A DNA stretch of 50,280 nucleotides from a virus (IMGVR_UViG_3300032046_000003:128001-178280); one strand, 5' to 3'; shown: positions 3,886 to 42,481, numbered from the stretch's first letter. The notes: generated from the letters alone by a model not told the origin. Made by a program: numbers and translations.

Positions 3886-4435
3886 TGATTTTAAAGTTAT
3901 AGAAAGTGAAGTTTTAAATTGCAGTAAGTGTGAAAGATTAAGATCAGTTACTCCCAATCAAATGCCTCACATATTCTATGGGAATATAGACGACATAAAG
4001 CTTGTAATTGTTGGTAGGAATCCTGGTCTTGAAAATGACACTTCTAAAATTTCAAAAGAAAATTTCATGGATTATTATAGAGAGAAATGGCTAGAGTGTA
4101 AAATAGGAAAGTATTTAAGAGAAAAACTTGGAGATGAAGTGATTTTGAAGAAAATGTTTTTTACTAATATATGTAAATGTTCATCACCAGACAACAGCGC
4201 ATTATTAGAAGAAGAGAAAACAAATTGTTTAGAGTTTCTTAAGAGACAAATTAATTTAATAAAGCCTAAAATAATAATAGCTCTAGGGTCAGATGCTAAA
4301 AAAGCAGTCAGTTCAATAGGATATAATTGTTCAACTCATTATTTATATCATCCAACTTTTTTTTTGTATAAACACGACAAAACATTAATTCATCAACAAG
4401 ACTGCAGTTTAAATCTCATAAAAGGTGTATTATAA
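3872..4435 (+). CDS. uracil-DNA glycosylase superfamily protein (family 4-like, Fe-S)
   Basis: CSKC, GRNPG, FTNICKC, NCLEFLKRQINLIKPKIIIALG, YHP. Confidence 0.8.
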   Translation: MTLYDDFKVIESEVLNCSKCERLRSVTPNQMPHIFYGNIDDIKLVIVGRNPGLENDTSKISKENFMDYYREKWLECKIGKYLREKLGDEVILKKMFFTNICKCSSPDNSALLEEEKTNCLEFLKRQINLIKPKIIIALGSDAKKAVSSIGYNCSTHYLYHPTFFLYKHDKTLIHQQDCSLNLIKGVL

Positions 4436-34885: not shown

Positions 34886-35140
34886 ATGAATAATAAAGAA
34901 TGGTTAATAGACGAATTTAAATGTGCTTGGGGAGATAGCAAAGAATACGAAAAATGGAGGATAGGCCCCAAAGATGCATGGTTTTGGACTGGAACCGTAG
35001 AATCAGAAAGGTCAGCAGAACCTATAGTAGAAAAAATAAAATTTTATAGAAAAAAGAAAAAGAGCAAAAGAATACACAAACTAAAGCATAACGCTCTCAA
35101 TAAGATGAAGAAAATAGGAATTATAGACGAGGCCATATAG
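34886..35140 (+). CDS. hypothetical protein
   Basis: GAGGTG RBS. Confidence 0.5.
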   Translation: MNNKEWLIDEFKCAWGDSKEYEKWRIGPKDAWFWTGTVESERSAEPIVEKIKFYRKKKKSKRIHKLKHNALNKMKKIGIIDEAI

Positions 35141-35169
35141 TTCAAGTTTTGTGTTAAATGCATTATAAT
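35140..35169 (+). promoter_or_regulatory. phage promoter, motif A (heads the HAD-Ubl-E2-JAB-E1 unit)
   Basis: GTTCAA-13 nt-TGCATTATAAT. Confidence 0.7.
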
Positions 35170-35180
35170 AGGAGATATTA

Positions 35181-35411
35181 ATGAGAATAGAATCATCAAT
35201 AGCAGACGAAATAATAAAAATGTTAAAAGGTAGAAAAATTAAGGATGCCATTGACAAATTAGAGGGACTGAAATGTAAACATCATATCCCTTTACCATAT
35301 AATGTCACGCATGCGTCAGGTTACGGGTTGAAAAAAAATAAAACATATAAGCGTTGTTCAATATGCGATGAAATATACGAAGAGATTAAGCCTAAAAGTT
35401 GGAGGGCATAA
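35181..35411 (+). CDS. small Cys/His protein
   Basis: CKH...CSIC; AGGAG RBS. Confidence 0.55.
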   Translation: MRIESSIADEIIKMLKGRKIKDAIDKLEGLKCKHHIPLPYNVTHASGYGLKKNKTYKRCSICDEIYEEIKPKSWRA

Positions 35412-35872
35412 TGACCAGAAAAAAAGAGGCCGTGATATGCGACATTGACGGAACAGCGGCATGTGATATGCCTAGGTGGAGTGCGGCGACCAATAACACT
35501 AATAAATTGAAAAATGTCAATTGGGATATTTACTTTGACGAGAACTTGCTGTTAAACGACAAGCCTATTAAAGAAATAAAAAAAATAGTATTGAAATATT
35601 TTTCAGAAGGTAAACAGATAATATACTTGACAGGAAGGCATGGTAAACTTTTAGGTATCACCAAAAAATGGCTTAAAAACAACAATTTTCCAATAGGAAT
35701 AGTGTTAATGAGAGAAAATGACGATTATGAAAACATATTTAATTTTAAAACAAGCAAAATAAAAGAAGTATTAAAGAAATATAATGTAGTATTTGCATTG
35801 GGCGATTTAAAAGAAGACAAAGCAGCTTATGATTCATTTGGAATACCAAATTTTATTGTAAAAGGGGGGTGA
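35411..35872 (+). CDS. HAD phosphatase (T4 PNKP 3'-phosphatase-like)
   Basis: ICDIDGT, YLTGR, LMR, FK, LGD. Confidence 0.85.
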   Translation: MTRKKEAVICDIDGTAACDMPRWSAATNNTNKLKNVNWDIYFDENLLLNDKPIKEIKKIVLKYFSEGKQIIYLTGRHGKLLGITKKWLKNNNFPIGIVLMRENDDYENIFNFKTSKIKEVLKKYNVVFALGDLKEDKAAYDSFGIPNFIVKGG

Positions 35873-35879
35873 AAAAGTT

Positions 35880-36101
35880 ATGGCAGAAATTACATTCCAT
35901 CGTCTTGGTGGAGATGTGTCTAAGTTGAACATAACAGAGGAAATATCTGTTAAGGATGCGTTAGACAGGGCAGGTGTAAAGTATCAAACCGGTGATGACA
36001 TCAGAATCCAAGGCAAATCTGTGGGGCTTGATACGAAGATTACCCCTGATCAAGCGCAGTTTGTCACAGCAGTCCCGAAAGTCAAAGGGGGTATTCACTA
36101 A
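35880..36101 (+). CDS. ubiquitin-like (beta-grasp) protein with GG plus 2-residue extension
   Basis: 73 aa ending PKVKGG-IH; adjacent to E2, JAB, E1. Confidence 0.8.
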   Translation: MAEITFHRLGGDVSKLNITEEISVKDALDRAGVKYQTGDDIRIQGKSVGLDTKITPDQAQFVTAVPKVKGGIH

Positions 36102-36203
36102 AATTTTAGTGTGATAGGGATTAAGGACGGTGAGTCCGCCGATAAAAATTGGGAGCATTGGACATCTTTACCAAAACCTTAGTTCCGTGTAAAGGAGAAA
36201 AAA

Positions 36204-36851
36204 ATGGCTAAAGTAGATGATAAAATAGAAGACAAGAAATTTAAAGAAGAGCAAGAAAGCTATATTCAGACATGTCAAACTAGGCATGACCATAGAATAA
36301 AGACTTGCGATGACAAAGAAAAGCAAATAAGCAAGGAAATAGAGCAGACCAGTAAGCAATTAATGTTGTATGTTAGAGCGTTAAATGATATACAAATCGA
36401 GTCAAACGACCTGAAAAACAACAAAGAGAAGAGCATAGAAAAATATAGAGAGGAATTCAAGGCGCTCAAGTCTATGAAAAATTACAAAAATATTCAAGTT
36501 TCATTTAGCAACAACAGACCGGCGCTGGTAGGCTTTACTAATATGATATATATACAAGATAAAAATCAGTGGTACAAAATAGGTAAGTTTAAAGTTGTTA
36601 TTCAAGATGGTACTATTAATATCGATAATTTGACAAGTAAAAAAGAGGGGTATAATCATCCACATGTTCAAGGAAACGGCACTCCGTGCCTCGGAGACTT
36701 ACAATCAAGTTTGCCCAAGTTAATGGGCAATCACGAATATGCGCTCGTGTTTGACATCATACACAAATATTTATGTAGCTACAATGAAAGAAGTCCGTAT
36801 AAAAAAGTAGAGGCCTGGGAGAGAGTAAGCAAGCCAGGGGATGACGCATAA
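36204..36851 (+). CDS. E2 (UBC-fold) conjugating enzyme with N-terminal coiled coil
   Basis: HPHVQGNGTPCLG matches the E2 HPN/H...C motif; YN..SPY C-terminus. Confidence 0.75.
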   Translation: MAKVDDKIEDKKFKEEQESYIQTCQTRHDHRIKTCDDKEKQISKEIEQTSKQLMLYVRALNDIQIESNDLKNNKEKSIEKYREEFKALKSMKNYKNIQVSFSNNRPALVGFTNMIYIQDKNQWYKIGKFKVVIQDGTINIDNLTSKKEGYNHPHVQGNGTPCLGDLQSSLPKLMGNHEYALVFDIIHKYLCSYNERSPYKKVEAWERVSKPGDDA

Positions 36852-37355
36852 ATGTTAAAATCCAAAATATTTTTAACACCAGAAACATTCAAGAAAATAA
36901 GATTTTTTACCGATCTGGCTGAAGGTGAGGTATCAGGTCTAGGTAAGGCAGAGCGATCGGGTAATGATTTTATTATTACAGATGTCTATTGTCTTAAACA
37001 ATATAACACAGGGGCATCAACTGAATTAGACAGTGAAGACATTGCAAAATTACTGTGTAGACTGTATGAGAAGAAAGAAGATGTTAGCCTGTTGAAATTC
37101 TGGTGGCACTCTCATGCTAATTTTGGTGCATTTTGGAGTGGAACTGATACTCATACTATTAGTGAATTTGCAGCCAGCAACAGCTATTTAATATCGCTCG
37201 TAACAAATAAAAACGGCGACATATTGGCCAGATTAGACATATTTAATCCAATTGAATGCACTTTTGATAATGTAGAATTGGACGTAATGATAGATGCGAA
37301 AGATGCTGCATTAAAAGAAGAGTGCCAGAAAGAATTGGAGCATATTAATGAGTGA
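36852..37355 (+). CDS. JAB/MPN+ metalloprotease (Ubl maturase/deconjugase)
   Basis: GEVSG...WWHSH....WSGTD JAMM motif. Confidence 0.88.
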   Translation: MLKSKIFLTPETFKKIRFFTDLAEGEVSGLGKAERSGNDFIITDVYCLKQYNTGASTELDSEDIAKLLCRLYEKKEDVSLLKFWWHSHANFGAFWSGTDTHTISEFAASNSYLISLVTNKNGDILARLDIFNPIECTFDNVELDVMIDAKDAALKEECQKELEHINE

Positions 37356-38001
37356 ACAAAAATATTGGAGACAGTTAGATATAGTTAATAATGATAAGTT
37401 AAGCATTCCTATAACTATAATAGGTGCAGGGGCCGTCGGTTCATTTGTGTGTTTGACATTAGCAAAAATGGGATGCACTGATATAACAGTATATGATGAT
37501 GACGACATAGACACTCACAATATTTCTAATCAATTTTACAGAGAACAAGATTGCGGTAATTCAAAAGTTGAAAGTTTGAAGGCAATAATAAAAGAGTTCG
37601 ATAATATAGATATTAAGATTGTTTCAAAAAAATACAAAAATCAATCTCTTGAAGGCATAATTATATCTGCTGTTGACAGTATGAACGTAAGAAACGATAT
37701 ATGGAAGAATATCAAATATAATCCCTCCATAAAATTATTCATAGATGGCAGAATGGGCGCCGAAGTTATGAGAATATACACAGTAAAGCCTCATGATAAG
37801 GACGAGATAAAGTTCTTTGAAAAATATTTATATACTGAAAAAGAAGCAGAGGAATTAAAATGCACCGAGAAGAGCATAATATATAATGTTGCTGTTGTCA
37901 GCGGATTAATAACTAATCAAGTTAAGAAATATTGTATGGAGCAAGAATATAACAAAGAATTGATTTTTGATTTAAAGAACTTGTTGTTTATAAAGAATTA
38001 G
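37348..38001 (+). CDS. E1/ThiF-family activating enzyme
   Basis: IIGAGAVGS, YDDDDIDTHNISNQ, SKV, AVDS, DGRMG, candidate catalytic Cys in ELKCTEK. Confidence 0.9.
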   Translation: MSEQKYWRQLDIVNNDKLSIPITIIGAGAVGSFVCLTLAKMGCTDITVYDDDDIDTHNISNQFYREQDCGNSKVESLKAIIKEFDNIDIKIVSKKYKNQSLEGIIISAVDSMNVRNDIWKNIKYNPSIKLFIDGRMGAEVMRIYTVKPHDKDEIKFFEKYLYTEKEAEELKCTEKSIIYNVAVVSGLITNQVKKYCMEQEYNKELIFDLKNLLFIKN

Positions 38002-38030
38002 TTCAAATGAGAAGAAAAATGCATAATAAT
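38001..38030 (+). promoter_or_regulatory. phage promoter, motif A (degenerate)
   Basis: GTTCAA-13 nt-TGCATAATAAT. Confidence 0.5.
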
Positions 38031-38312
38031 ACTGATGTGAACATAATAGACTATACATTGTCCAGGGAACTGGACAAGATTAAAAGGAAGCGTCGATCAG
38101 CTGAAAGAGATTTAGCAGATATTAAATCCAGATATGAATTAGCTTCGGTTGAAGTTGAATATTATAATCATTGTGAAAAAGAAATTCTTGAGAAGTTAGA
38201 TAGTAAATACATAAAAAAAATGAGCGAGCCTGAATTCGAAAGAGTCAGAAGAGCCAAATATAATAGTTCGGTCAAATATAGACGTAATGGAATTACGGAG
38301 GAAAGTATATGA
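38007..38312 (+). CDS. coiled-coil hypothetical protein coupled to the Clp ATPase
   Basis: ATGA overlap with clpC; start uncertain. Confidence 0.5.
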
Positions 38313-40828
38313 TATGTGAAGATTGCCGTCAAAATGAAGCGACATTTGAAGCCATATTTAATATAAATGGCGCCAGGCGCGTTAAAAATATATGTGATGT
38401 ATGCTATAACAAATATCAACTAAGCAACGACGAACAAGTTAAAGAAATTTATAACAAATTAAGCGACGCCACCAAGAAGTCTATTTATTATGCAAGGAGA
38501 GAGGCTAAGAACAGAAGGCATAAATATGTCACCGAATACCATTTATTATACGGAATCGTTCTCGAGCAAGGCAGCACATATAACACTTTAATAAGCATCG
38601 GCGTGAATATTGATAGTTTAAAACAAAAAATAGATTGGGCTTTAACTGCTGTTGCTGATTTAGTTGATAGGGGTAGTCAAGTTGAACCACTTTTATCAGT
38701 TGAAGTAGCCAATACATTAAAAGCCAGTGTCAATATAATAAATAAAATAGAGTTTCCAGAAGTGGAGCCTGAACATATTCTAATAGCAATCTTGGAACAA
38801 AGAGACAGCGAATTGTGTAGAGTGCTGAAACAGCAATTTGGATTAGACATAATTAAGATATTGGAGGAAATAGAGGCTCAATTACCCGGCGATATTGACC
38901 TAGTTAGAAAATATAAAGAAAATGATTCTAAGAAAACAGCATTAGAAAAGTACAGCAGGAATCTGACTAAAATGGCCAAAGCCGATGAACTCGATCCTTG
39001 TATAGGTAGAACCTTAGAAATAGAGAGAATGATACACATATTGTCTAGAAGGACCAAGAACAACCCTGTGCTGGTCGGAGAAGCCGGTGTTGGTAAAACT
39101 GCAATAGTAGAGGGATTGGCAAGAAAAATAGTTGAAGGTGATGTACCTGAAAACATATTAAATAAGCAAGTCTTAGCGCTGGACTTAAACTCGATGGTGG
39201 CGGGAACTAGGTTTAGAGGAGAGTTTGAAGAGAGAATAAAGGCTGTTCTCGATGAGGTAAAATCTCGCTCAAGAGAGGTTATTCTTTTCATAGACGAATT
39301 GCATACGTTGATAGGCGCAGGTTCGGCTCAAGGAAGCATGGACGCCGCCAATATATTGAAACCCATGTTGGCGAGAGGGGAATTACAATGTATAGGAGCA
39401 ACAACTCGAGAAGAATACAGCCAACATATAGAAAATGACAAGGCGCTAGAAAGAAGATTCCAACTTATTGACGTTTCAGAACCTACGGTAGACGAGGCAA
39501 AAGAAATCTTAAAAGGCGTAAAATATAGATATGATAATTTTCACAATGTGAATATAAGCAACGAGGCTATTGACGCGGCCGTTGAAATGTCAACTAAATT
39601 CATAGCCAACAGATTCTTGCCGGATAAAGCAATAGATTTGATGGACGAGGCCAGTGCTAAGGTAAAATTAAGCAAGTTGGAATTACCAGAAGACATTAAA
39701 TCCCTTAAAAAGCAAATAGCGCTAGATAAGAAAAATAAAAAAGATACTGTAAAAGAAGAAAAACTGCTTAATCAGAAACTCGAAAAAAGAACAGAGGACA
39801 ATAGCAAAATAGTTCTAAATGTCGAGAAAAACGACATAGCGCAAGTGGTTAGCAGATGGACTAAAATACCCGCAACTGAACTATTGAAGGAAGAGAAAAC
39901 TAAACTATTGCATTTAGAAGATAAGCTGCACGAGAAAATCATAGGTCAAGACCAGGCAATAAAGGCGCTTTGCAATTCGATACGAAGATCGAGAGTCGGT
40001 ATAAACGACCACAACAAGCCAATAGGCTCTTTCATATTTGCCGGTAAGACCGGAGTGGGTAAAACTTTAGTGGCCAAAACACTAGCCGAATATCTATTTG
40101 ATTCTCCCGAGCACTTTATAAAAATTGACATGTCAGAGTATCAAGAAAAACATACAGTTTCTAGACTAATAGGAGCGCCTCCAGGATATATTGGATTTGA
40201 GCAAGGCGGGCAATTAATAGAACACTTAAGAAGGCACCCTTATTCAGTTATATTGTTAGATGAAATTGAAAAAGCTCATCCAGACATATTTAACGTATTA
40301 TTGCAAGTGACTGAAGACGGGGTAATAACTGATGGCAGAGGAAGAAAAGCCGATTGTAGGAATTCCATCATAATAATGACTTCAAACATAGGGGCGTTAA
40401 AAAAGGACATTATAGGGTTTAATGCAAAGATCGAAACTAAAGACGAATATGAGAGGCTTAGAACAGCTACAGAGAATGCCATGAAGGAGTTTTTTAAGCC
40501 TGAATTCTTGAACAGGATAGACGACGTCATAGTATTCCACAATCTGGAAGAGGACGACATGTATAAGATAGTAGAATTGATGATAAACGACTTGTCTGCA
40601 AGAATGAAAAAGCAAGAGCTCAATATAAAGATAGACCAAGACGTCAAGAAGTTGTTGGTGGAATCTGGATTTGACAAAGAATATGGCGCTAGAAGTTTGA
40701 AGAAATTCATAGTTCGCAGGATAGAAAATCCATTGGCTGAAGAGATGCTTAAGGACAAATTTAAGCCTAATGACACTATATTAATTACTAAAGAAAAGAA
40801 AGAAATAATTTTTGAAGTAGAAAAATGA
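38309..40828 (+). CDS. clpC: ClpC/ClpE-like AAA+ unfoldase
   Basis: N-terminal CEDC...CDVC Zn finger, Clp-N repeats, [32 protein letters not shown] ClpP-docking loop. Confidence 0.92.
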
Positions 40829-41244
40829 TACCCTTAGTTATTAAAAGATTAGAGCCAGATTTACTTAAAATTTATAACAAATTAATAGAAGACGGATGGA
40901 ATTGTGTATCTAATAGCAGAATGATATTTATGAAAGATTTGTACGAGGATTTTCATACAAAAGTTACTGTTATTAAGGGACGCAGAAAATTTCGCTGTCA
41001 AGTAGACTGGGACTTTTCTAAACTGTTATGGATTGAAAACGATTCAAGGGTGAGGCTGATCGAATTTCACAAGTCAGATAAAACAAAGTGGTTTCGATCA
41101 AGAGGACAGTTGGAGAATAGAGAAATATCTGTAGATCAGTTCGGTAATTTGGATGAAATATTAGACGAAATGTTTGACAATATACAAAATATACACAGCA
41201 TTAACAAGGTCAAGCGATTGCGTTTATTTAACGAAAACATTTAG
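40825..41244 (+). CDS. hypothetical protein
   Basis: ATGA-coupled to clpC. Confidence 0.55.
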
Positions 41245-41273
41245 TTCAAGTTTGTTGAAAGTTGCATTATAAT
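41244..41273 (+). promoter_or_regulatory. phage promoter, motif A
   Basis: GTTCAA-13 nt-TGCATTATAAT. Confidence 0.7.
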
Positions 41274-41293: not shown

Positions 41294-42481
41294 ATGAACG
41301 TATTTGATTATGGAGTTGACTTATCAGGTGTTTGTGATAAATGTAATAAAAAAATAATAATGGGTATATGCGCTTGTGAAAAGACAAATAGAAAATTAGC
41401 TTCTATACAAAAAATATTAGCAGTTGAACCCATAGAAGGAGCTGACAACATAGAGAAGGTTAAGGTTCTTGGGTGGCAAGTAGTGGTGAAAAAAGGAGAA
41501 TTTAAACCAGGAGATTTATGCGTATTTTTTGAAATAGACTCATTTTTGCCCATAAGAGAAGAGTTTGAATTCTTAAGAAAATCTAGTTATCGCCTTTTAG
41601 AAGATGGCAAAGAAGGATTTAGATTAAAGAGTTGCAAGCTCAGGAAGACTTTATCTCAAGGACTTGTAATGCCGCTATCTATTTTAGATGGAAAATTAAC
41701 TTTTTCAGCACCTTCTGGTTTAGAATTAGGAAAAATGATGGAAATGGCAATAGACAAAGTATTAAGTGCAGAAGAAGGATTAGATGTTACAGAAATATTA
41801 GGCATTACAAAATATGAGATAGCAATTCCCGTCCAACTGAAAGGAATTTTAGAGGGGAAATTTCCTACAGAAATAATACCCAAGACAGACGAGATACGCA
41901 TCCAGTCGGAACCCGGTCTTATTGAGGAAATGAAAGGCAAGGAATATTACATCACTGTCAAGGTAGACGGAACAAGCGCCACATTTTATAAGCACAACGA
42001 TAAGTTTGGTGTATGCGGCAGAAATTGGGAACATAAATTAGAGTCCCAAAACGCTTATATGCAAATAGCACAGAAATACGATTTACAGAATAAGCTGAAT
42101 GCACTGGGTAAGAACTTGGCGATACAAGGGGAAATCGCAGGGCTTGGCATACAGAAGAATCCTTTGGGACTTAAAGAATTAGAATTATTTGTGTTTTCTA
42201 TATATGATATAGATAATAGAAAATATTTGGATTTAGAGGAATTTTTAAATACAGCAAGAGAATTAAATCTTAGAACAGTTCCATTTGAAGGAAGAGATTT
42301 GGATTTTGATTATATAATGGAAGAACTTATTGAAAAAGCTAAAGGTAAATATGTAGGGACACAGAAAAACCGAGAAGGCATAGTTATAAGACCGATAAAG
42401 GAAACATATTCAGAGTTATTGAAAGGGAGATTATCATTTAAGGTTGTTAATGATGATTATTTACTTAAGGATGAAGAATAG
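41294..42481 (+). CDS. RNA ligase (DRB0094/Rnl5-like)
   Basis: RKLASIQ..PIEGADNIE N-domain, KVDGTS, IQGEI, REGIVIR, SFKVVN. Confidence 0.9.
   Translation: MNVFDYGVDLSGVCDKCNKKIIMGICACEKTNRKLASIQKILAVEPIEGADNIEKVKVLGWQVVVKKGEFKPGDLCVFFEIDSFLPIREEFEFLRKSSYRLLEDGKEGFRLKSCKLRKTLSQGLVMPLSILDGKLTFSAPSGLELGKMMEMAIDKVLSAEEGLDVTEILGITKYEIAIPVQLKGILEGKFPTEIIPKTDEIRIQSEPGLIEEMKGKEYYITVKVDGTSATFYKHNDKFGVCGRNWEHKLESQNAYMQIAQKYDLQNKLNALGKNLAIQGEIAGLGIQKNPLGLKELELFVFSIYDIDNRKYLDLEEFLNTARELNLRTVPFEGRDLDFDYIMEELIEKAKGKYVGTQKNREGIVIRPIKETYSELLKGRLSFKVVNDDYLLKDEE

Follow-up and report, generated by a model that had tools for sequence, protein, structure and literature searches.

Conjugation of ubiquitin-like proteins (Ubl) is established in bacteria for the Bil and Bub systems and for Cap2 of CBASS. 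In the ClpC-ClpP system of Bacillota (B. subtilis and S. aureus, with MecA and McsA/McsB) a covalent phosphoarginine (pArg) mark is read by the N-domain of the unfoldase and degradation by ClpP follows, which is parallel to the tag logic proposed here for a viral locus. This locus lies in a 50,280-nucleotide stretch (IMGVR_UViG_3300032046_000003:128001-178280, hereafter the window, from the first letter of which all of its positions are counted), the final 50 kb of a virus record of sediment origin that is complete at 178,280 bp, with direct terminal repeats. On the + strand of the window a block of six genes encodes, in order, a Ubl, an E2-like protein, a JAB metallopeptidase, a minimal ThiF-type E1, a 101-residue open reading frame (ORF) and an 839-residue Hsp100 (Table 1), and an original prediction made from the sequence had suggested that Ubl-tagged proteins are delivered by this Hsp100 to the ClpP of the host. 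The sequence supports a phage unfoldase that is ClpP-dependent, probably unrepressed and linked both physically and temporally to a complete Ubl tagger; from this we infer conjugation activity, constitutive activity, docking on host ClpP and, above all, recognition of Ubl by the unfoldase.

The Hsp100 aligned end-to-end with B. subtilis ClpC (phmmer, E=7.5e-212). Clp_N (PF02861, 1.6e-14) was matched in two stretches covering residues ~48-195, which align with the ClpC N-domain, and Walker A, Walker B and pore-loop aromatic motifs are intact in both AAA rings (GEAGVGKT, ILFIDEL and RFRG in the first ring, D1; GKTGVGKT, VILLDEI and GYIG in the second, D2). Residues 3-32 form a CxxC-x22-CxxC finger matching the N-terminus of McsA (NCBIfam NF053706, 7e-5), whose four cysteines are invariant across members of the clade formed by this phage and its relatives. 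All of the parts named in the original prediction (a ClpE-type zinc finger, Clp-N repeats and two AAA modules in an 839-residue Hsp100, one small gene after E1) were found in place, and by its predicted architecture the unfoldase is a ClpC/ClpE hybrid. The same finger stands ahead of a canonical ClpC N-domain in a metagenomic ClpC of 942 residues (protein P0232, on a 4.8-kb Logan contig), so this architecture is not confined to the phage clade. Identity to even the nearest bacterial ClpCs is no more than 45-48%, and as these belong to many different phyla the clpC gene does not reveal the host. Few phage records contain an Hsp100 gene (202 of 50,697 matched, many of these being contaminated contigs), and a word-based homologue search with the N-terminus of the phage ClpC gave one close relative as its sole match.

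The tripeptide I702-G703-F704 sits at the position of the ClpP-docking VGF of B. subtilis ClpC, bearing out the IGF loop that had been proposed. Among the homologues listed, bacterial ClpCs have [LIV]GF here and ClpBs have a shorter loop without the tripeptide. The loop of the close relative reads HIGFN, and both IGF and loop length are kept in the two diverged lineages whose D2 is readable (the contig of a further lineage, L020, stops within D1), which argues for selection on ClpP docking. No ClpP (PF00574) was found in the window, in the whole 178,280-bp genome or in two further records (G001, described below, and G002), extending to the complete genome the absence first noted for the window; lacking its own ClpP, the phage would have to carry out any proteolysis through that of the host. 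The M-domain is ~16 residues shorter than that of B. subtilis ClpC, with alignment gaps of 3, 5 and 8 residues that delete 'QEF'; it contains no aromatic residue, the tip Phe (F436) is gone, and it gave no match to UVR (PF02151), though bacterial ClpCs have one. The repressed resting state of S. aureus ClpC is built by F436, a residue which MecA contacts, and the F436A mutant is constitutively active (PMC12583610), so that loss of the M-domain tip suggests a phage unfoldase which is probably always active. Cellular ClpC binds phosphoarginine in pockets with the glutamates E32 and E106 (numbered as in B. subtilis and S. aureus; PMC12583610); in the window protein the E106 equivalent is E155 and the E32 position reads TEYH, and relatives have D, A and V at the pocket positions. 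This variability, together with the shorter M-domain and its missing tip Phe, suggests that the phage ClpC is not regulated like the host ClpC.

The Ubl cassette is complete and, by its motifs, looks catalytically intact. The Ubl ends in KGGIH and seven aligned homologues all end in GG plus 0-2 residues; exposing the GG of the Ubl would need trimming of its IH tail. An AlphaFold2 model of the Ubl has a beta-grasp fold, with SUMO2, ubiquitin, NEDD8, SAMP1 and BubA as its best Foldseek matches (probability 1.0). The JAB motif E..HxH..S..D is invariant in 8/8 homologues compared and the best relative in the PDB is Rpn11 (7e-7), while the E1 is a single ThiF domain (2.7e-20) of 217 residues with an invariant Cys-Thr. 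No match to the E2-like protein was obtained in Pfam, PHROG, PADLOC or NCBIfam. Its model (predicted local distance difference test 84) shows a core preceded by a long helix, and the best 39 Foldseek matches were all E2 enzymes; a profile of 40 family members, in which HPH-x7/8-Cys is invariant, matched UBE2L3 (E=4e-4). At a threshold of E<=1e-3 this E2-like family numbers 3,753 cluster representatives, and Pfam has no model for it. Many of its members (invariant HPH-x7/8-C-[LF]-G) carry long variable N-terminal extensions, reaching up to ~950 residues in total. A tblastn search of cultured-phage records with the E2 gave no match, and scans of viral and genome contigs with back-translated HPH[VI]-x5/6-C[LF]GN yielded 11 and 40 stretches respectively, none of which was confirmed by the hidden Markov model (HMM) of the E2 family or by BLAST.

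The order Ubl-E2-JAB-E1-(1-2 small genes)-ClpC, with the zinc finger on ClpC, is kept in three lineages (the window; L001/L006/L021; L020), these being all of the clade lineages with contigs that extend far enough; in a fourth lineage (whose E2 is P0011) all contigs end just after E1. Identities to the window are 61% for Ubl, 50% for E2, 51% for JAB, 65% for E1 and 67% for ClpC in L001/L006/L021, and 46% for E2 and 56% for the N-terminal part of ClpC in L020. An RNA ligase gene that follows the block in the window is found upstream of it in L020, and thus the block from Ubl to ClpC has survived a local rearrangement.

Between E1 and clpC the original prediction placed a candidate adaptor at 38007-38312, the 101-residue ORF of the window. 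This ORF has no family match and is charged and, by eye, coiled-coil-looking. The close relative has two small genes here, of 109 and 89 residues, and L020 has one 117-residue gene which is homologous to the 109-residue gene (4e-18) and not to the ORF of the window; the similarity of the latter to the 89-residue ORF covers 21 residues (E=0.015). A C-terminal I(T/S)EES common to the small ORFs was considered as a sign of homology and rejected, as its codons double as the GGAGGAA ribosome-binding site of clpC (in the window at 38294-38312, where the final codons of the 101-residue ORF, T-E-E-S-I, make up this Shine-Dalgarno sequence). The proposed adaptor is therefore absent in L020, elsewhere an unrelated small gene stands in its place or beside it, and its start lies under a near-consensus promoter; with no small gene common to all lineages an adaptor role is unsupported. 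Sites of the AGGAG type are enriched in intergenic DNA across the genome, suggesting that the host probably relies on strong Shine-Dalgarno pairing.

A promoter-like motif, TAGTTCAA-N13-TGCATTATAAT, which combines a -35-like box with an extended -10, has six copies in the window (at 4405, 31173, 35138, 37999, 41242 and 42811) compared to 0.10 expected from shuffling, and 12 genome-wide, all on the + strand; it was not found in the loci of relatives at up to 3 mismatches. The copy at 37999-38030 has one mismatch, includes as its TAG the stop codon of E1 and covers the start of the 101-residue ORF, so clpC probably owns a promoter of the same class. The reservation made in the original prediction, that a degenerate promoter at 38001 may give clpC a separate transcript, is in this respect stronger than was stated. 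No terminator-like site was found between E1 and clpC, and a scan with sigma-70 and terminator consensus sequences gave 38 sites, no clear excess over the 31±6 expected. Since both units share the promoter-like motif and no terminator-like site lies between them, co-expression of the cassette and clpC is likely, but an obligate single transcript is not.

Table 1. Positions of the Ubl-ClpC block, its sequence features and its flanking genes in the window.
Feature	Position	Strand	Evidence or remark
Promoter-like motif, perfect copy of TAGTTCAA-N13-TGCATTATAAT	35138..35169	+	Precedes a 76-residue ORF, the HAD phosphatase gene and the Ubl cassette
HAD/PNKP-type phosphatase gene	35399-35872		Flanks the Ubl-ClpC block
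Ubl, 73 residues, C-terminus GG-IH	35880..36101	+	Tails of homologues; beta-grasp model, Foldseek
E2-like conjugating enzyme (putative), 215 residues	36204..36851	+	~90-residue N-terminal long helix, UBC-like core, HPH-x7-Cys162
JAB/JAMM metallopeptidase, 167 residues	36852..37355	+	Intact E..HSH..S..D; Rpn11 match 7e-7
Minimal single-domain E1 (ThiF fold), 217 residues	37348..38001	+	Invariant Cys172-Thr
Promoter-like motif, 1-mismatch copy	37999..38030	+	Overlaps E1 stop codon (TAG) and start of the small ORF
Charged ORF, 101 residues, former candidate adaptor	38007..38312	+	No conservation in the clade; possibly dispensable or with a later start
ClpC/ClpE-hybrid Hsp100 unfoldase, 839 residues	38309..40828	+	Domain matches, ClpC alignment
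McsA/ClpE-type C4 zinc finger (C3, C6, C29, C32), N-terminus of the unfoldase	38315..38404	+	NF053706 7e-5
I702-G703-F704 ClpP-docking tripeptide, D2 loop	40412..40420	+	Aligns with VGF of B. subtilis ClpC
ORF, 139 residues	40825..41244	+	Start overlaps clpC stop codon; matches neither a family nor an ORF in the relative
Promoter-like motif, perfect copy	41242..41273	+	Precedes the RNA ligase gene, closing the clpC unit
RNA ligase gene (PHA02142 OB fold and RNA_ligase)	41294-42481		Flanks the Ubl-ClpC block

The phage genome has a G+C content of 35% and almost all of its genes are on the + strand; a megablast search of the region against cultured-phage records gave no DNA-level matches. The HAD/PNKP-type phosphatase and RNA ligase genes around the block suggest an RNA-repair or counter-defence neighbourhood.

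Beyond the clade, an E1-profile scan of IMG/VR gave 75 viral loci, which were taken together with flanks of up to 10 kb either side. By an HMM census of these, E2, JAB and E1 occur together in ~42 of the 75, in three gene orders, and the cassette was also found alone in a phage-like contig, in a contig of a bacterial metagenome-assembled genome and in a further metagenome contig. An unfoldase-type ATPase lies within 7 kb of the cassette in four of the ~42 loci (the close relative, G001, G005 and G007), and only the close relative and G001 have an Hsp100 within 10 kb. G001 (L011, IMGVR_UViG_3300028043_000001) is a 116-kb phage contig of 46% G+C having 14 weak ORF matches with the window phage; it carries a sister cassette (L011:6869-9465, E1 46% identical) 6 kb downstream of a ClpB-type Hsp100 fragment (L011:2-640), which has no docking loop and groups with housekeeping bacterial ClpB at 63-66% identity. 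Small ORFs nearby in G001 gave weak Pfam matches of F-box-like (1.2e-3) and RING-like (6e-3) type, the RING-like one being directly after Ubl. In G005 (L094, IMGVR_UViG_3300025005_000002; 178 kb, 92% complete) a single-ring AAA protein of 589 residues (L094:5410-7179) is encoded 0.6 kb upstream of an E2-E2-JAB-E1-Ubl-like array, and its best solved relatives are VAT and p97/Cdc48 (1e-85 to 1e-76) and Mpa (1e-57). The N-terminal region of this protein has a weak MIB_HERC2-like match, and matched by phmmer (3e-4) a 292-residue ORF directly after E1 in L114. In the complete 183-kb G007 the gene of a classic AAA protein lies 6.6 kb downstream of E1. By a rough estimate rather than a formal test, the presence of 3-4 unfoldase families 0.3-7 kb from one cassette family is unlikely to be due to chance.

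Small ThiF and metalloprotease genes of crAss-like and FpV4-like phages were considered as possible examples of the same cassette and rejected, their neighbours missing the E2 profile and no Clp gene being present. In the cultured Flavobacterium phage FpV4 (L025) and crAss-like cr85_1 (L026) a small ThiF-type E1, ~30% identical and annotated 'thiamine biosynthesis protein', stands beside a gene with a metalloprotease domain.

Taken together, the block may be a phage proteostasis weapon with two linked parts. JAB would trim Ubl-GG-IH to Ubl-GG, the minimal E1 would adenylate Ubl-GG and hand it over by thioester (Cys172) to the E2 (Cys162), and the E2 would attach Ubl to target proteins. The unfoldase, without the M-domain tip at which repression and MecA binding occur, would probably be always active and, as its IGF loop is kept, would cap host ClpP through this loop; Ubl-marked host or defence proteins would be engaged by its diverged N-domain and zinc finger, unfolded and fed into host ClpP, with JAB recycling the Ubl tag. 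We regard such a coupled tag-and-degrade mechanism, running from Ubl-marked proteins through phage ClpC to host ClpP, as a serious possibility that falls a little short of an even chance. What has lasted of the original prediction is a ClpC-type unfoldase with a docking loop, in a phage without ClpP, in a conserved block with a complete cassette; what has not is the adaptor. The co-occurrence of clpC and cassette, which it proposed to check in related phages, holds in the three lineages of the clade; across the family their distribution is largely independent, an outcome that it had named as refuting and that speaks against a general link. A broader view, that phages repeatedly joined a minimal Ubl cassette to an unfoldase (ClpC here, a Cdc48/Mpa-like one in G005) and that Ubl is a true degron in the clade of the window, seems to us rather unlikely.

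Several observations weigh against the coupled mechanism, and many of them suit equally a pair of independent accessory modules lying side by side, in which a deregulated ClpC hijacks host ClpP alone, picking substrates by its N-domain and finger or degrading broadly, while the cassette modifies phage or host proteins without degradation, for example; to this explanation as a whole we give an appreciable chance, though one clearly below even. Most cassettes stand alone: ~38 of the ~42 in phages have no unfoldase within 10 kb, no Hsp100 (AAA_2) above the Pfam cut-off was found in any of 10 cassette-bearing records searched whole (5 of them 92-100% complete), so at least one function of the cassette requires no unfoldase of its own. 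The Hsp100 fragment of G001, being at a contig end, could be host flank. Within the clade clpC probably has its own, near-consensus, promoter, and what lies between it and E1 varies. The adjacency of nrdG and Ubl, taken as a control, is kept in 3/4 lineages and is about equally conserved, so that adjacency at this distance is only moderate evidence and weak taken alone. No ubiquitin-binding element of known type was recognised in the unfoldase, and Ubl conjugation in bacteria has been stated to be an unlikely degradation signal (PMC11601603). A brake-less ClpC is also plausible as a weapon by itself, as overactive ClpC mutants are reported to be toxic to bacteria (PMC13657355), and phage manipulation of ClpCP is known from Gp53 of SPO1 (PMC6873191). 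Independence of the modules is nevertheless hard to square with 3-4 families of unfoldase close to the same family of cassettes, which chance would not readily give, or with survival of the block when its flank was rearranged.

The recurring element among these loci is unfolding and not ClpP docking, the unfoldases outside the clade either lacking the docking loop (G001) or belonging to families that do not use ClpP, so that the ClpP route is specific to the clade of the window; this too counts against delivery to ClpP as a general scheme. Alternatively the unfoldase would work with the cassette without proteolysis, as a Cdc48-like segregase that extracts or unfolds Ubl-marked proteins or a phage-assembly chaperone, with IGF as a relic, which would agree with the Cdc48/VAT-like or loop-less unfoldases of G001, G005 and G007 and with the absence of a phage ClpP. 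Such a role is improbable in our view, given that IGF and loop length are kept in two diverged lineages whereas ClpB-type proteins have lost the loop. It is very improbable indeed that the cassette is a sulfur-carrier system (ThiS/MoaD-like, with E1 and JAB; compare CysO/Mec and QbsE/QbsD) for nucleotide or cofactor modification with ClpC unrelated to it. In favour of such a system, the E1 amounts to a minimal ThiF/MoeB-like domain, a GG-xx tail is trimmed by JAB in sulfur-carrier pathways too, and operon classes of sulfur-carrier type that include JAB have been described (PMC1779556). However, an E2-like protein with an invariant HPH..Cys is always in the cassette, no sulfurtransferase, rhodanese or cofactor genes adjoin it, and the Ubl model is at least as close to ubiquitin/SUMO as to MoaD.

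In the block of the window a complete tagger and a ClpP-docking unfoldase are physically linked, and the Cdc48/Mpa-like case of G005 is a parallel; the two make the question of a degradation signal directly testable with six small expressible genes. If the broader view with Ubl as a degron were true, the block would encode the first tag-and-degrade pathway of ubiquitin type in the bacterial and phage world, in which the virus brings the tagger and the motor and steals the protease from its host. Even if the modules are independent, a phage ClpC that lacks the brake and has to borrow ClpP from the host would be a host-takeover tool of a new kind. Little has been described of the cassette family, which has ~3,750 cluster representatives, occurs in at least ~40 phage lineages and is without a Pfam model.

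Compared to known systems, the phage unfoldase is like ClpC of Bacillota in having an N-domain with two Clp_N repeats, D1, a coiled-coil M-domain, D2 with an [LIV]GF loop and D2-small. It differs in its extra McsA/ClpE-type finger, its low identity to cellular ClpCs, its shorter M-domain without UVR or F436 and the variation within the phage clade at the positions of the pArg-pocket glutamates; the phage has no ClpP, and no MecA-type or McsB-type partner was recognised near clpC. ClpE of Bacillota shares with it the N-terminal C4 zinc finger, two AAA rings and the ClpP-docking loop, but ClpE is not known to have a ClpC-type N-domain between finger and D1 whereas the phage protein carries a full one there, and the solved ClpE chain aligns only from residue 212 on. 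Gp53 of SPO1, an adaptor-like protein which retargets host ClpCP (PMC6873191), is also a case of phage interference with host Clp proteolysis; SPO1 gives a small modulator and here a whole unfoldase is supplied by the phage.

BilABCD and Bub share with the phage cassette the four-gene logic of Ubl, E2, JAB and E1, and the gene order Ubl-E2-DUB-E1 (DUB, deubiquitinase) is that of BilABCD. The tail of the phage Ubl is like that of the Bil Ubl, which has a conserved Gly and a short tail removed by JAB (10.1101/2023.09.26.559546). Unlike the multidomain BilD, which has an inactive and an active adenylation domain and a CYS domain, the phage E1 is one 217-residue adenylation domain, and the phage E2 has HPH (HPN-like) 7-8 residues before its Cys, whereas the Bil E2 has Cys then His (CEHH-type). 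Searches against solved Bil and Bub chains gave nothing beyond generic E1, E2 and JAB matches. With its minimal E1 and HPN-type E2 the phage cassette is thus not a member of Bil; it also differs from Bil and Bub in being encoded by phages rather than in bacterial defence islands and in being followed by an unfoldase. Against the PRTRC models (TIGR03735-03742) the E1 scored 38 bits to TIGR03736, compared to a cut-off of 144.75, and E2, JAB and Ubl had no NCBIfam match.

In 2006 Iyer, Burroughs and Aravind proposed, with uncertainty, a handing over of proteins to Clp by ubiquitin-like modification for their class 4d neighbourhoods, ThiS/MoaD-JAB-ClpS (PMC1779556), which unlike the phage block have a ClpS adaptor, no E2 and no unfoldase, and lie with genes of cysteine synthesis. 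Among the papers found, none described a phage-encoded ClpC beside a Ubl cassette. In its proposed logic the phage system is like the tag-dependent ubiquitin-26S proteasome/Cdc48, archaeal SAMP-proteasome and actinobacterial Pup-Mpa-20S systems. It differs from these in that the protease would be host ClpP and not 20S, and from Pup in particular, which is disordered and ligated by a different chemistry. The likeness lies in a small covalent tag of GG type, an Rpn11-related JAMM enzyme and a ring ATPase that would feed a self-compartmentalised protease, and it extends to G005, where the same kind of cassette is paired with a Cdc48/VAT/Mpa-like ATPase.

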